A stretch of 64,000 nt of DNA from NCBI GenBank assembly GCA_963708075.1, contig OY970194.1, positions 1,792,001-1,856,000 of the forward strand. The letters are read 5' to 3'. Below, piece by piece: positions 35,145-40,558 of the stretch. The stretch is from Sedimentisphaerales bacterium. GTDB lineage: Bacteria; Planctomycetota; Phycisphaerae; Sedimentisphaerales; Anaerobacaceae. The position numbers and the translations under genes are program-made. Within the stretch, counting starts at the first letter, position 1; the number at the start of each line of letters is the position of its first letter. Below the pieces are notes generated by a model. That model was not told the DNA's origin, did not search any database, and was given only the letters and a program-made list of their open reading frames with translations.

Positions 35145-35265
35145 GGCACCCGCCGTTCAGCAATCGCCCTGTTGACAACGCACGCCTGCCGTCGTATCAT
35201 CACCGCCCGTAGTGCCGGAGCGTTCCGGCATTATAGAGTTTGGAGGTCCTTGTTTGGAGAAAAGT

Positions 35266-36012
35266 ATGAGCATGTCTGTCAAGTCTTGTGGTATTGTCCT
35301 GGGGTTGGTTTCTGCGCTGCTTGTGCCCGCGGCAGCCAATGAAGCCGTATCCACGACCAATTTCATGGTCGATGGCTTCTACGGGAACATCGATGGCGAA
35401 ACGGGCAAAGGCGTCGGTGGTCTGGCGGCGGTTCCCCTCGGCGACAGTTACGGCCTGCAGGTCGATGGCCTGTACGGCGAGGTCAACCCGGACGATATCA
35501 AGGGGGCCGGCCTGCATACCTTCTGGCGCAAGTCCACGCTGGGACTTGTCGGGCTGACCGCCAGTCTGGCGGAATGGGAGAATAGCGAGGCCATCCGGGT
35601 CGGGGCAGAGGGCGAGTACTACTGGGATCAGTTTACATTCGGCGGCTTCGGGGGGCATCAGAGTGGCGACGTCGACGACTCATGGTACGGCGGGCTCGTA
35701 GGCCGCTTCTATCCGCTCGAGGATCTGATGTTGTCGGCGGCAGCCACGACAACGGACGATTTCGAAGTATACATCTTCGGGGTCGAATACCAGACCCCCG
35801 TTCCCGGCCTGTGCGTTTTCGCGACCGTGGCAGCGGGCGAAGATGATTACGACCACACCCTTTTCGGCGTGCAGTACTACTTCGGCGGCTCTCAGAAGAC
35901 GCTCATTCGGCGGCACCGCGAGGACAACGTCGCCGTCAATCTCTTTGGCAATCTGCTCGGGGCGGTGGCAGGCGTGAGCGAACCGCCGGTGCCGGAGCCA
36001 GAGCCGGACTGA
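35266..36012 (+). CDS. putative outer-membrane beta-barrel protein
   Basis: signal peptide; alternating G/aromatic beta strands (VGAEGEYYW, GVEYQ, FGVQYYFG). Confidence 0.7.
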   Translation: MSMSVKSCGIVLGLVSALLVPAAANEAVSTTNFMVDGFYGNIDGETGKGVGGLAAVPLGDSYGLQVDGLYGEVNPDDIKGAGLHTFWRKSTLGLVGLTASLAEWENSEAIRVGAEGEYYWDQFTFGGFGGHQSGDVDDSWYGGLVGRFYPLEDLMLSAAATTTDDFEVYIFGVEYQTPVPGLCVFATVAAGEDDYDHTLFGVQYYFGGSQKTLIRRHREDNVAVNLFGNLLGAVAGVSEPPVPEPEPD

Positions 36013-36062
36013 TCAAGTCTGTGAACGGCCAGACACGGCGCGTGAATTCGCTAAACTCGCGA

Positions 36063-36091
36063 TTGACAGCAGCCGAGAATTCTGGTAGAAA
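36063..36091 (+). promoter_or_regulatory. sigma70 promoter P1 of the ileS leader
   Basis: TTGACA-N17-TAGAAA with extended -10 TG. Confidence 0.65.
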
Positions 36092-36124
36092 CGTGATGAG
36101 ATGTACGTTCGTAGAAAGATTCAC

Positions 36125-36226
36125 ATGCGAACAGTGATGGGTAGACAATTCAGGGCGGTGATCGGGACCGAGCGGATCGCTATCGGTCTGATCATAATTA
36201 TTGGCGGGAGAAGAAAGCTGCCCTGA
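36125..36226 (+). CDS. Ile-rich attenuator leader peptide MRTVMGRQFRAVIGTERIAIGLIIIIGGRRKLP (alternative start 36137)
   Basis: 7 Ile codons including tandem ATC ATA ATT ATT (36191..36202); lies between promoter and terminator upstream of ileS. Confidence 0.85.
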   Translation: MRTVMGRQFRAVIGTERIAIGLIIIIGGRRKLP

Positions 36227-36250
36227 GAATGCTTATATCGAGTTGACGTG

Positions 36251-36290
36251 AAGCCTTCCAGAGCAGCAGACTCCGGAAGGCTTTTTTATT
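36251..36290 (+). terminator. intrinsic terminator (attenuator 3:4 hairpin)
   Basis: AAGCCTTCC-A-GAG/CTC-C-GGAAGGCTT stem followed by TTTTATT. Confidence 0.9.
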
Positions 36291-36302
36291 GGAGCAGAGA
36301 CG

Positions 36303-36407
36303 ATGCAGACGCAGGCAGTGATCCGCAAGGCGACGCGGCGGGATCTGGATGCGATCGTCGCGCTGGCACAGGAGTTGATGGACTTCCACAAGGCCCTCGA
36401 CCTGTAG
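36303..36407 (+). pseudogene. truncated GNAT acetyltransferase N-terminus (34 aa)
   Basis: GGAG RBS; MQTQAVIRKATRRDLDAIVALAQELMDFHKALDL matches the GNAT IRxAxxxD...L start, then stops. Confidence 0.55.
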
Positions 36408-36436
36408 TTGACATAGGCGTCGTGCAGACTTATGAT
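36408..36436 (+). promoter_or_regulatory. sigma70 promoter P2 directly upstream of ileS
   Basis: TTGACA-N17-TATGAT. Confidence 0.7.
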
Positions 36437-36474
36437 GCGTCATTTACTCTTGGGAGCCTTTGAGGACGTTGATA

Positions 36475-39340
36475 ATGTCGGATGACCAGAAGCATAATTA
36501 TCGCGATACATTGAATCTGCCTCAGACGAGCTTTGCGATGAAGGCGAACCTGGTGCAGCGCGAGCCGCAGATGCGCAAGCGCTGGGCTGAGCAGAAGATT
36601 TACGCCCGGATTCGCGAGGCCCGCAAGGGCGCTCCGCTCTATATCCTGCACGACGGCCCGCCGTACGCCAACGGCGACATCCACATGGGCCACGTGATCA
36701 ACAAGGTCCTCAAGGATTTCGTGGTCAAGTACCGGACGATGATGGGCTTCGACGCGCCGTACATCCCCGGCTGGGACTGCCACGGGCTGCCCATCGAGTC
36801 GAAGGTGATGACCGATCTCGGCGAGAAGGCCAAATCCATGCCCAAGCAGGAAATCCGCCGGGACTGCATGAAGTACGCGGGCAAGTACGTGAAGATCCAG
36901 AGCCGGCAGTTCCAGGACCTCGGCGTGTTCGGAGACTTCGACAACCCGTACCTGACGTTCAAGCCGAGCTACGAGGCGGGAATCCTCGAAGTCTTCGCCG
37001 AGATGGTCGGCAAGGGTCTCGTCTATAAGCAGCTCAAGCCGATCCACTGGTGCATCGGGTGCGAGACGGCCCTGGCGGAGGCGGAACTGGAGTACAAGGA
37101 TGTTGCCTCGCCGAGCATCTTCGTCAATTTCCCCACCACGGATGAGACGACAAAGCGACTGGTCGAAATGGGCTTGGTGACAAGCGAGCAGGCGCAGCAG
37201 GCCCAGGTCTGTCTCATGATCTGGACGACGACGCCGTGGACGCTGGCGGCAAACCTGGCGGTCGCCGTGCACCCATTCCTCGATTACACGGCTATCAGCT
37301 ACCAGAAAGACGGCCGCAAATTCGTGTCCGTCGTCGCCACCGAGCGTGTCAATGCCGTGGTGCGGGCCGGCGGGCTAAAGGAAGGTGAGTATCACGTCGC
37401 CGAAGCGAAGGTACGTGGCAGCGATTTGGAGGGCTTGCGATACAAGCACCCATTCGTCGACTGGAATCCGACCGACAAAGACGCCTATATGGTGGTCCTG
37501 GCCGACTACGTCACTATCGAGGACGGCACCGGCCTCGTGCACACGGCGCCCGGGCACGGCCTGGAAGACTACATGTCGGGCCAGAAATATGGCTTGGCGG
37601 TGTATTCGCCGGTCATGGACGACGGCCGGTACGACGATACGGTACCGCCATGGCTTCGCGGCCGGTGCGTGCTCGACGTGGAAAAAGACGTGAACAACTA
37701 CCTGCGCGAGCACGGCTGGCTGTTCGCCCAGGGCGAGATCCAGCACAGCTATCCGCACTGCTGGCGAAGCCGGGACCCCGTGATCTTTCGCGCGACGGAG
37801 CAGTGGTTTGTCGGCGTGGACAAGCCCCTGCCCGATGTCGGCAAGACCCTTCGCCAGATGGCGATGGAGAGCGTCGAGCAAGTCCAGTGGATTCCCGCGT
37901 GGGGCCAGAAGCGAATCGCGGGCATGCTCGAATCGCGCCCGGACTGGTGCATCAGCCGCCAGCGAAGCTGGGGCCTGCCGATCCCGGTCTTTGTCATGCC
38001 GGATGGCCGGCCGCTGCTGACAAAGGAATCGGTCCTGGCCGTCGCCCGCCATACCGAGAAGCACGGCTCCGATAGCTGGTTCACGCACTCGCCTCGACAA
38101 ATCCTTGGCGACGATTTCCCGCTGCCGGCGGGCTTCAACCTCGACGAACTCCAAAAGGAAGAGAACATCTTCGATGTGTGGTTCGAGTCCGGCTGCAGTT
38201 GGTACAGCGTCTGCCAGCGACGCGAGCACTGGCCCGTGCCGGTGGATATGTACCTTGAAGGCTCGGACCAGCACCGCGGCTGGTTCCAGCTCTCCCTGCT
38301 GCCTGCACTCGGGGCCATCGAGAAGCCTCCGTTTAGGAGCGTCCTGACTCACGGCTTCACCGTCGATGAGAAGGGAATGAAGCAATCGAAATCGCTCGGC
38401 AATTACGTGAATGCGCAAGATGAGATCACCAAGTACGGCTCTGATATCCTGCGACTGTGGGTTCTCGAGCGTAAACTACCAGGAGGATGTTCGCTGCACG
38501 GACGAGTTGATCGGCAGGACGCAGGACGCGTATCGCAAAATTCGCAACACGCTGCGATACCTCTTCGGCAACATCGACGACTTCGATCCGGGCAAAGACG
38601 CCGTGCCCTACGAGCAGATGCTCGAGATCGACCAGTGGGCCATGCAGCGGCTTCAAAAGCTTATCGCCGAGGTCACCGAGGCGTACGACAGCTTCACGTT
38701 CCATCGCGTCTTCTCGCTGGCGTACAACTTCTGCTCCGTCGAGATGAGCAGCATCTACATGGACGTGCTGAAGGACCGCATGTATTGCGACCCGGCGGGC
38801 AGCCCCTCCCGCCGCAGCGGCCAAACGGCCATGTATCATGTCCTCAGCACAGTTGTGCGAATGTTCGCGCCGGTCCTCGTGCACACGGCGGAAGAGGCCT
38901 GGGAGGCGATGAAGGTCAAGCCCGAGGCCTGCGACAGCGTTCACCTGGCCCACATGCCCAAGGTCGATCCTTCCATCGACTACGCCGGTCAGGAACCGAA
39001 GTGGGAAAAGTTGATGGGCTTGCGTGATGAAGTCCTGCGGGTCCTCGAAGGCCTGCGCCGCGACAAGATCATCGCGAGCAATCAGGAGGCCTCCATCACG
39101 ATGCATTGCACGCCGGAAGACGCCGAGGCGTTGAAGCAGTTCGGCATCCCGCAATTCGCTGCCCTGTGCATCGTCAGCGAGGTCAAGCTCGAAGAAGGCG
39201 CTGTGCAAACGACCGTCACCGCCGGCAAGAGCCCCCATCCCAAGTGCCAGCGTTGCTGGAACTACTGGCCGAGCGTGGGTACGAGCGCCGAGCACCCCGA
39301 CATCTGCGACCGCTGCGCCAGCGTGGTTCGCGGGCGGTAG
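36475..39340 (+). CDS. ileS: isoleucine--tRNA ligase, type 1 (one extra base near 38462)
   Basis: LHDGPPYANGDIHMGH, WTTTPWT, GTGLVH, DWCISRQR, EGSDQHRGWF, KQSKS, C-terminal CQRC...CDRC zinc site; 2866 nt = 3n+1. Confidence 0.96.
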
Positions 39341-39381: not shown

Positions 39382-39762
39382 CTACACCATGAAGAGCCGA
39401 TCCACATGCTTTCTGGTCAGCCGGTAGTCGCTGAGCCTGGCGCAGCCTCTTGGGGCTGTGCTGACCATGCTCTTCGGGATAAGAAATACCTGGGAGCTGT
39501 TAAGGCAAACCTCCCCGTTGCTAGCACAGAGCTTTACGACCGCCAAGATGTGATATCGTTCAGGAAGATCCCTGGCACTGTACGAGTTCCCTGTCGTGGT
39601 CTTGACCTGGATTGCCTTGAACACTCCCTTGCGAACCGCGATGAGGTCATTACCCGAGTCTTTCAGTGGTGGGGCAGCCTGAACCCCGAATTGGAGCAGG
39701 CGAATCTGGACAAGTAATTCCCCAAGTGCACCTGTGTTCATTTTATCCGGAAGGTCATTCAT
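39382..39762 (-). CDS. small PD-(D/E)XK-type nuclease-like protein (start uncertain)
   Basis: GALGE...GNDLIA...AIQVKT fits the E...D...QxK signature. Confidence 0.6.
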   Translation of the reverse strand: MNDLPDKMNTGALGELLVQIRLLQFGVQAAPPLKDSGNDLIAVRKGVFKAIQVKTTTGNSYSARDLPERYHILAVVKLCASNGEVCLNSSQVFLIPKSMVSTAPRGCARLSDYRLTRKHVDRLFMV

Positions 39763-39815
39763 CTTTGCTGTTCCCGACATCTGACATAGTAAGAAAGACG
39801 TTAGGATGCTCATCT

Positions 39816-40394
39816 TCAAATCTGACTGGTCTGCGATGACGGTTGCTTCGCGCGATCCAGAAGAGATTGCACAAATTCAATGGTCCCTTCATAATCTGGG
39901 GAATTGGCGCCGACTGTCAAGCCATCAATCAGTGTCTGCACATCGTCGAGAGAAGGCGACAGGACATAACCGAGGACCTTCTCTTCCACCATGTTCAGGG
40001 TGTGATCGATGATTTTCTGGCTGACTCCAAGACTCCTAAGGAGACTCACAACAGGCTCTCGATTGCCACCCACAAACATGCGTTTCTCGAATATAACGAA
40101 GTGGCCTTTTCTTAGCTCCCAGTCACCTGGCTCTATCCAGAATCTCCAGCCGCAGAAACCTGGAATGTTGCTGAGGAAAGAGCCCAATGTATCCAGACCA
40201 TCATAATCGTCTCCTTCTGCAACTTGCACTTGTGCAGATGCATCCTGGCTGGCAAACAGCCCAAGGTGTACCATTTTCTCCGTGCCTTCATATGGGACCG
40301 CTTCATACCAAGGGTCGGCATGTATACCGCTCTCGCTCATACATCTGAAGAACTCCCTGCATTGCTCTAAGGTCAGTTCGTTTCTGATGTCCAT
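39816..40394 (-). CDS. hypothetical protein
   Basis: GGGAGG RBS; open ORF in a visibly AT-richer segment. Confidence 0.6.
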   Translation of the reverse strand: MDIRNELTLEQCREFFRCMSESGIHADPWYEAVPYEGTEKMVHLGLFASQDASAQVQVAEGDDYDGLDTLGSFLSNIPGFCGWRFWIEPGDWELRKGHFVIFEKRMFVGGNREPVVSLLRSLGVSQKIIDHTLNMVEEKVLGYVLSPSLDDVQTLIDGLTVGANSPDYEGTIEFVQSLLDRAKQPSSQTSQI

Positions 40395-40558
40395 CATCAT
40401 GCCTCCCAACACAAACGCACTTCCGTAGGCAGTCTTCGCGCAATCACACTATATCGGACCGATTCCGTGGCGACTTGAGGATCGCCCGAGAGCTGTCAGA
40501 GAATTGGGCCGTAGAAAGGCTGCACCGCGAGGTCAATGAGGCGGCAGATTTGCAGATA

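Follow-up and report, generated by a model that had tools for sequence, protein, structure and literature searches.

The gene for isoleucyl-tRNA synthetase (ileS) of a Sedimentisphaerales bacterium is very probably preceded by a ribosome-mediated Ile attenuator that resembles the pheM system, a reading that draws on sequence comparison and on RNA folding models. The window, i.e. the whole stretch of DNA that was analysed, comprises 64,000 nucleotides (contig OY970194.1, positions 1,792,001 to 1,856,000). Ile-keyed attenuation is supported by a conserved leader reading frame, a conserved distance between the Ile codons and the stop codon, covarying terminator and antiterminator helices, and the lack of a T-box. 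The switch would likely sense charged tRNA-Ile, adding to the transcription of ileS and, where a cargo gene lies in front of ileS, to that of the cargo gene as well. The locus consists of the following features (positions of the window):

36063..36091, + strand: P1, predicted sigma70-type promoter TTGACA-17-TAGAAA, with a GCCGA-like spacer motif and a predicted start at about 36098
36125..36226, + strand: leader ORF, 33 aa from ATG 36125, ending ...IIIIGGRRKLP-stop, with TGA at 36224-26
36150..36195, + strand: segment 1 (36150-58) and inner helix (36158-95) of the predicted 1:2 anti-antiterminator, lineage-specific
36191..36202, + strand: Ile control codons ATC ATA ATT ATT, the last Ile 7 codons before the stop
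36217..36234, + strand: predicted antiterminator 5' strand, covering the last leader codons and the stop
36251..36267, + strand: shared strand, antiterminator 3' arm and terminator 5' arm plus loop
36251..36290, + strand: intrinsic terminator hairpin (36251-83) and U tract, predicted from folding and covariation
36303..36407, + strand: GNAT acetyltransferase stub, 34 aa, first ORF past the terminator; full-length (about 160 aa) in genus relatives
36408..36436, + strand: P2, predicted sigma70-type promoter TTGACA-17-TATGAT, 11/12 consensus match, 3' of the terminator and directly before ileS
36475..39340, + strand: ileS, encoding IleRS with a C-terminal FPG/IleRS zinc finger (Pfam PF00133, PF08264, PF06827)

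An earlier note on this DNA had described the leader ORF with 7 Ile codons and the tandem ATC ATA ATT ATT, and this description was confirmed for the start at ATG 36125; from the in-frame ATG 36101 the count is 8, and ATG 36137 is a further alternative. The leaders of genus relatives start with MRT... at the position matching ATG 36125, and a Pfam scan of the leader peptide yielded zero families. In a genome-wide chance test, 917 terminator-like hairpins included 9 with an upstream short residue-run ORF, only 2 of which look like amino-acid leaders, namely the IIII leader and one WWW leader. The Ile-leader arrangement before ileS is not a product of chance, and its core also recurs in relatives. 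The WWW leader (19 codons, G000:C1 near 231032, minus strand) is followed by a strong terminator and, 60 nt on, by a long ORF which presumably resembles anthranilate synthase; this locus is a candidate trp attenuator. Two further ideas about the leader were given up. A membrane-peptide role is at odds with a hydrophobic run of only about 5-8 residues and, as we argue, with a conserved tail that is fixed at the nucleotide level. At least one rare ATA codon occurs in 54/75 leaders, where coding usage in ileS would predict 34.7; since these leaders come from related genomes and are not independent, selection for rare ATA was dropped as a claim.

The predicted terminator hairpin (36251-83, -17.4 kcal/mol) is followed by TTTTTTATT, in agreement with the U-tailed terminator at 36251-90 proposed earlier. 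A simple terminator scan of the region listed 0 terminators, since the long, bulged loop falls outside the scan pattern. Pairing of 36217-34 with 36251-67 gives an antiterminator of 15 bp and -18.5 kcal/mol, matching the approximately 15 bp that had been suggested, and the two structures are mutually exclusive via the shared strand 36251-67. The 1:2 hairpin of the earlier note is likewise present here: 36150-58 pairs with 36218-26 around the inner helix within the minimum-energy fold (z = -2.83), and the helix isolated reaches -33.0 kcal/mol.

Searches for relatives of the element were carried out at several levels. A blastn query with 36050-36300 matched 97/200 family genomes at E<=0.01, a few of them weakly. 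An exact pattern made of hairpin bases only matched 82 stretches among 185,579 species genomes; 80 were examined as loci, and all but one are assigned to Sedimentisphaerales, Phycisphaerae/Phycisphaerales, 'Pirellulales' or Planctomycetota MAGs. The exception (L105) is a pattern match on a 3.4-kb contig labelled Ca. Aegiribacteria, which is possibly mis-binned. With a first covariance model, the element was also found in families f5 and f7 of the order. A second model found it in 13/151 class genomes, outside the order only in 3/4 of one family, and in 3/151 phylum genomes, the window's genome included. Within the genus, strong matches are present in 15/23 other genomes and none in 8/23; in four genus genomes without a strong match, the element finder came back empty over about 7.5 kb upstream of ileS. 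The window copy scores 107.6 bits in the covariance model, of which it is itself a part.

Copies from the blastn and exact-pattern searches and from the ileS comparison in relatives were pooled into a close set of 88 distinct ones, 86 of them, from Sedimentisphaerales relatives, with enough upstream sequence; kin are not independent in any of the counts over copies given here. The leader is usually 20 codons long (e.g. MNKNINIAIIIIIAEKLKLP), and the distance from the last Ile to the stop is 7 codons in 78 of the 86 copies, 8 in 7 and 3 in 1. The check proposed in the earlier note, conservation of an Ile-rich upstream ORF before ileS in relatives, hence turned out positive, with the last Ile 7-8 codons before the stop in 85/86 copies. 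In the pattern-only set, the Ile run of which was unused in the search, this distance is 7 codons in 72/78 and 8 in 5/78 copies, and at least 3 Ile are found in codons -14..-7 in 76/78 scorable hairpin-pattern matches. Because the search pattern contained hairpin bases only, the Ile run is no search product. The reading from an ATG is open to the Ile run in 77/78 copies with the P1 motif, whereas the two other frames give 1 and 5, and the last 19 codons are free of stops in 86/86 copies, against 7 and 40 in shifted frames.

Covariation was assessed in the close set and in a divergent set of 46 rows, with the reservation that relatedness of kin inflates all counts and that the hairpin search pattern had fixed some positions. 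Terminator pairing is kept in 98% of 1118 cells in the close set and in 96% in the divergent set, where 68 two-sided changes were counted (0/500 shuffles as high). The antiterminator shows two-sided changes in 7/9 pairs, 30 cells, of the divergent set (0/500 shuffles as high); in the close set, where 2/16 named pairs are mostly unpaired, it has no covariation excess (376/500 shuffles as high). The covarying stems that the earlier note had asked for were thus found for both helices in divergent copies, and were missed for the antiterminator in close ones. An Rfam scan of 35500-36800 gave 3 chance matches, all well under gathering scores, and no family fits. Searching with the T-box covariance model (RF00230) gave 0 matches in the genome and was positive in 5/14 control genomes.

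The leader ends with Pro-stop (36221-36226 in the window) in 80/86 copies, and a C-A mismatch in the antiterminator is retained in 77/86 copies although Leu (CTC) would mend it. Translation termination at Pro-stop is slow, and it could in this way prolong masking of the antiterminator strand.

Comparison of the copies also shows where the earlier picture was too complete. A strong segment-1 duplex is found mainly in copies with long leaders, and most copies have no 1:2 helix. The antiterminator is the default fold of the free RNA, i.e. with no ribosome, in 66/86 copies, and in the window the Ile run sits 33 nt past segment 1 and not inside it. The 'complete' four-segment design claimed for this locus is not supported in that form. 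Attenuation of a trpL/pheM type, as had been proposed, survives as a pheM-like, Ile-keyed arrangement (frame, spacing and covariation) and fails with respect to the four-segment trpL anatomy. Calling the mechanism 'established' was too strong, as leader translation, termination and the response to Ile stand as predictions.

The effect of ribosome position was modelled with a footprint whose 3' edge is assumed 13 nt past the start of the A site, and the RNA ahead was folded before the terminator 3' arm is complete. With the A site at codons -12, -10 and -8, the antiterminator is predicted with P>0.5 in 82, 86 and 86 of 86 copies, respectively; at -6 it is predicted in 84/86, and at -4 or at the stop in 0/86. 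A ribosome on the control codons would hence free the antiterminator, and one at the stop would mask it. The Ile run of family f5 reaches to within 4 codons of the stop, and in the model the antiterminator switches off one codon past the last Ile in 5/5 copies tested. At full-length equilibrium with a ribosome on the Ile codons, the terminator wins in 77-82/86 copies, which suggests that read-through needs co-transcriptional kinetic trapping. The comparison of folds with and without a footprint, recommended in the earlier note, therefore came out in favour of the antiterminator on the Ile codons (82-86/86 copies) and against it at full-length equilibrium.

For the window itself the spacing is only partly suitable when segment 1 is allowed to pair around the ribosome, in a model that disregards ribosome bulk: the antiterminator stays blocked when the stall is at 36191 or 36194 (P 0-0.11) and is freed only by stalls at 36197 and 36200 (P 0.15-0.92). 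In the models, the claim that a stall at 36191-36202 frees the antiterminator holds for the latter two codons, and for the former two only if segment 1 does not pair in this manner. This is a counterweight to the attenuator reading, since in this genome a ribosome at the first or second Ile codon might not keep the 1:2 helix from forming around it.

Both promoters of the locus are predictions. The promoter TTGACA-N17-TAGAAA named earlier is present (TTGACA at 36063-68, a 17-nt spacer, TAGAAA at 36086-91), and its -10 hexamer lacks the final T, which is why a consensus promoter scan does not list P1. A motif of the TTGAC..GCCGA type stands upstream of 78/86 close copies. GCCGA follows TTGACA (36063-36076) after 2-3 nt, within the P1 spacer in 78/86 copies and often as the palindrome TCGGCCGA; the TTGACA/GCCGA motif has 16 occurrences in this genome and possibly represents a regulator site or a promoter class. 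P2, which ends 38 nt ahead of the ileS ATG, fits the consensus better than P1 in the same scan. Its pattern was found in 74/82 element loci against 0/220 control windows inside ileS, and in 12/14 ileS loci without any element within 1.5 kb; several genus genomes have P2 without the element. The P2 pattern is absent in five genus relatives that carry GNAT cargo, and in two of these five the GNAT stop overlaps the ileS start, so that ileS there would depend on read-through. As the predicted P2 lies 3' of the terminator in most loci, the attenuator probably only tops up basal ileS transcription. The placement of the element upstream of ileS is well borne out, since ileS lies 3' of the switch in 82/82 copies with enough sequence (the contig ends in the other 6/88); outright control of ileS by the attenuator is not, given the P2 pattern in 74/82 loci.

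Three features of the window went unmentioned in the earlier note, namely the GNAT stub (36303-36407), P2 (36408-36436) and a frameshift in ileS. A single strong tblastn match identifies ileS as the sole copy found in the genome, and an extra base near 38461-65 breaks its frame in two. Most relatives have intact ileS frames of 946-1049 aa, hence the frameshift is likely an assembly error. The stub matches, by eye, the N-termini of GNATs in five genus relatives (L013, L022, L023, L026, L048); those of L022 and L048 belong to Pfam PF00583, and the stub itself gave a weak AstA match only (E 0.11). Cargo between terminator and ileS is present in 35/82 loci and absent from 47/82. At least 20 of these genes encode SAM methyltransferases, 13 encode GNATs and 2 esterases, with the first two kinds together at one locus, and the median number of Ile is 5 in cargo-free loci against 4 in loci with cargo. 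The 19 cargo representatives scanned carry GNAT and SAM-MTase folds, and none reaches a curated resistance-family cut-off (best ArsN1a, 147.7 vs 170). The flanking ORFs at 35212-36012 (+), 39382-39819 (-) and 39816-40412 (-), of 266, 145 and 198 aa, have no Pfam match over the cut-off; the 145-aa ORF shows a weak match to PD-(D/E)XK (E 0.011).

Based on this dataset, we propose the following sequence of events. RNA polymerase would initiate at P1 near 36098, and a ribosome would translate the leader, as conservation of its frame suggests. With ample Ile-tRNA, this ribosome would reach Lys-Leu-Pro-stop, which overlaps the antiterminator 5' strand; the strand would be masked, the terminator would form, and folding predicts that the transcript ends near 36285-90. 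With scarce Ile-tRNA, it would presumably stall on the Ile run, located 8-12 codons before the stop, with its leading edge short of 36217. The antiterminator would then precede the terminator 3' arm, and read-through is predicted, provided that kinetic trapping occurs. The P2 pattern close to ileS, if active as predicted, would probably provide basal transcription in most genomes, which the attenuator would supplement in an inducible manner; in the five genus relatives without this pattern, the attenuated P1 would be the sole promoter found. The extra 1:2 helix of the window would favour termination when the leader is untranslated, and most relatives are without such a helix.

Elements of the same type also stand at sites other than ileS. 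This genome itself has a second copy (G000:C1:5999983-6000111, minus strand), the Met/Ile/Val-mixed leader of which lacks an Ile run. This copy heads a cassette (L221, G000:C1:5990000-6000111, minus strand) with a methyltransferase, a GNAT, a PhzF-like protein, two ORFs, dapF and another GNAT, where PhzF and dapF are named from homologues. Cassettes similar to it are present in two genus relatives (L198, L199). Codons -14..-5 contain 0-3 Ile in the 11 copies that are away from ileS, and at least 4 in 23/26 divergent copies within 4.5 kb of ileS; for 9/11 of the away copies ileS was found elsewhere, though in fragmented assemblies. A few leaders linked to ileS have just 2-3 Ile (L163, L183, L200). 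The Ile counts of L185, L190 and L191 are 2, 2 and 1. In L189 (G263:C1:1287891), ileS follows on the same strand after 9.8 kb; the leader is Met-rich with zero Ile and precedes a SAM methyltransferase. Copies in a sister family have aromatic-rich or mixed leaders. Two copies of family f17 of the same class (L229, L237) show the same terminator chassis with leaders rich in Phe/Tyr/Trp. Families f2, f3 and f17 possess longer IleRS (open frames of 1055-1113 aa) on contigs other than those of their attenuator copies, which have no Ile run, and the IleRS of f2 and f3 is unmatched by the window's IleRS type at 1e-60. The Ile run thus tracks closeness to ileS, and this is the best evidence for ileS as the selected target despite P2. 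In a short-alignment tree the f5 Ile leaders are placed among cassette-type copies, which suggests two origins of the Ile leader; a single clade is kept open by p-AU 0.06.

As a more far-reaching and tentative idea, which as a whole we hold with more doubt than confidence, Sedimentisphaerales and their kin may possess a portable, re-programmable attenuator chassis, composed of a short ORF that mostly ends with Pro-stop inside the antiterminator, and of a conserved terminator. Leader codons might be rewritten to fit the genes behind, with the poly-Ile run at ileS possibly acquired twice from two chassis sub-lineages, and with Met/Val/Ile-mixed or aromatic-rich leaders before GNAT/methyltransferase cassettes away from ileS. 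When IleRS delivers less, as it might under natural inhibitors of synthetases, the copy at ileS would switch on the synthetase together with the small modifying enzymes. It might then serve as an inducible defence module whose input code can be read.

Other explanations place the selected function elsewhere. The element could be a general ribosome-stalling sensor for its GNAT and methyltransferase cargo, in the sense of a stress or detoxification cassette, with the Ile run as a convenient stall site and ileS as a chance neighbour run by P2. The P2 pattern in 74/82 loci would fit this, as would the cargo in 35/82 loci, most of it SAM methyltransferases and GNATs, and the homologous switches that lead the same gene families away from ileS. 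We nevertheless consider it improbable, as 47/82 copies keep the switch without cargo and with a median of 5 Ile against 4, copies with ileS at a distance or at another site have lost the Ile run, and all tested cargo proteins stay below curated resistance-family cut-offs. It is also quite improbable that a true attenuator of the lineage has become a relic in this genome, with cargo shrunk to a stub, ileS driven by P2 and a terminator that merely insulates. All parts are intact here (107.6 bits, own copy in the model) and intact cargo-less copies are the majority among relatives, even though the GNAT stub ends at P2, P2 is closer to consensus than P1, and several genus genomes retain P2 without the element.

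A more radical view dispenses with translation: ATT-ATC-ATA-ATT-ATT would bind a protein as an operator, or act as an RNA motif that is not translated, and an ordinary terminator would follow. The stretch is near-palindromic, we take it to resemble a Fur-box-like AT repeat, and synonymous variation is scant at some positions, with ATT in 81/81 Ile codons at -9. Against this, an in-frame ATG and stop are kept over leaders of 16 to >40 codons. ATG makes up only 30/393 of the ATN codons in the run, the order of Ile codons differs in divergent copies, and the antiterminator covaries. We regard this view as very improbable indeed, and the Ile attenuator ahead of ileS as the preferred reading.

Several known systems are comparable. 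In the E. coli pheM-pheST attenuator, a leader peptide with cognate codons, an antiterminator and a terminator precede the synthetase gene. Attenuators of the trpL type have a four-segment anatomy, with a 1:2 hairpin and the control codons in segment 1. Leader-peptide riboregulators of antibiotic-resistance genes combine a short ORF and a conditional terminator before small modifying enzymes; the likeness to these is best for the paralogous copies described here, whereas the cargo stays under resistance-family cut-offs and the ileS copies have a strict single-amino-acid run. Those features of a classical attenuator that can be tested in sequence were found, i.e. a leader with tandem cognate codons, a terminator, an exclusive antiterminator and the spacing. 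A leader with cognate codons, an antiterminator and an intrinsic terminator ahead of an aminoacyl-tRNA synthetase gene are shared with pheM-pheST and with the classical attenuators predicted ahead of the Streptomyces genes trpS and leuS (excerpts of PMC1262725). On the other hand, the target here is ileS and the lineage Sedimentisphaerales (Planctomycetota), a second promoter lies past the terminator, cargo of the GNAT or methyltransferase type is variable, and there is mostly no 1:2 helix. With trpL, ilvL, ivbL, leuL, thrL, hisL and pheL, listed as leader attenuators in excerpts of PMC1183508, the element shares a predicted antiterminator-terminator switch set by the position of a ribosome on control codons. 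It differs from the trpL type in control codons outside segment 1 and in an antiterminator strand formed by the last leader codons and the stop, and from this set in that the codons are Ile alone, not Ile/Leu/Val, and that the target is a synthetase rather than a biosynthetic operon. T-box riboswitches of ileS are described for Firmicutes and Actinobacteria (excerpts of PMC1262725 and PMC2494555). They have the same target gene and the same presumed signal, tRNA-Ile charging, whereas sensing here would use the translating ribosome and not direct tRNA binding, in a genome in which no T-box was found. The excerpts of PMC2494555 give 0 T-boxes for the one planctomycete included. A keyword search of titles and abstracts in mostly open-access literature, along with excerpts of PMC1262725, PMC4833913, PMC1183508 and PMC2494555, gave neither a leader-peptide attenuator of ileS nor one in any planctomycete.

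The core mechanism is a textbook one; the variant features are the two promoters, the interchangeable cargo and the reuse of the chassis with other leaders. If the proposed reading is true, ileS would join the known targets of leader-peptide attenuation, and the element would show how a phylum in which no T-boxes were found, neither in the one planctomycete of PMC2494555 nor in this genome, controls an aminoacyl-tRNA synthetase. The relatives represent a natural experiment, in which the same RNA switch keeps poly-Ile beside ileS and loses it when moved, and in which one family has its Ile run nearer the stop and still ends it at the predicted switch point. They would make the retargeting of an attenuator directly testable, and may hint at the signals to which the GNAT and methyltransferase genes of the uncharacterised cargo respond.
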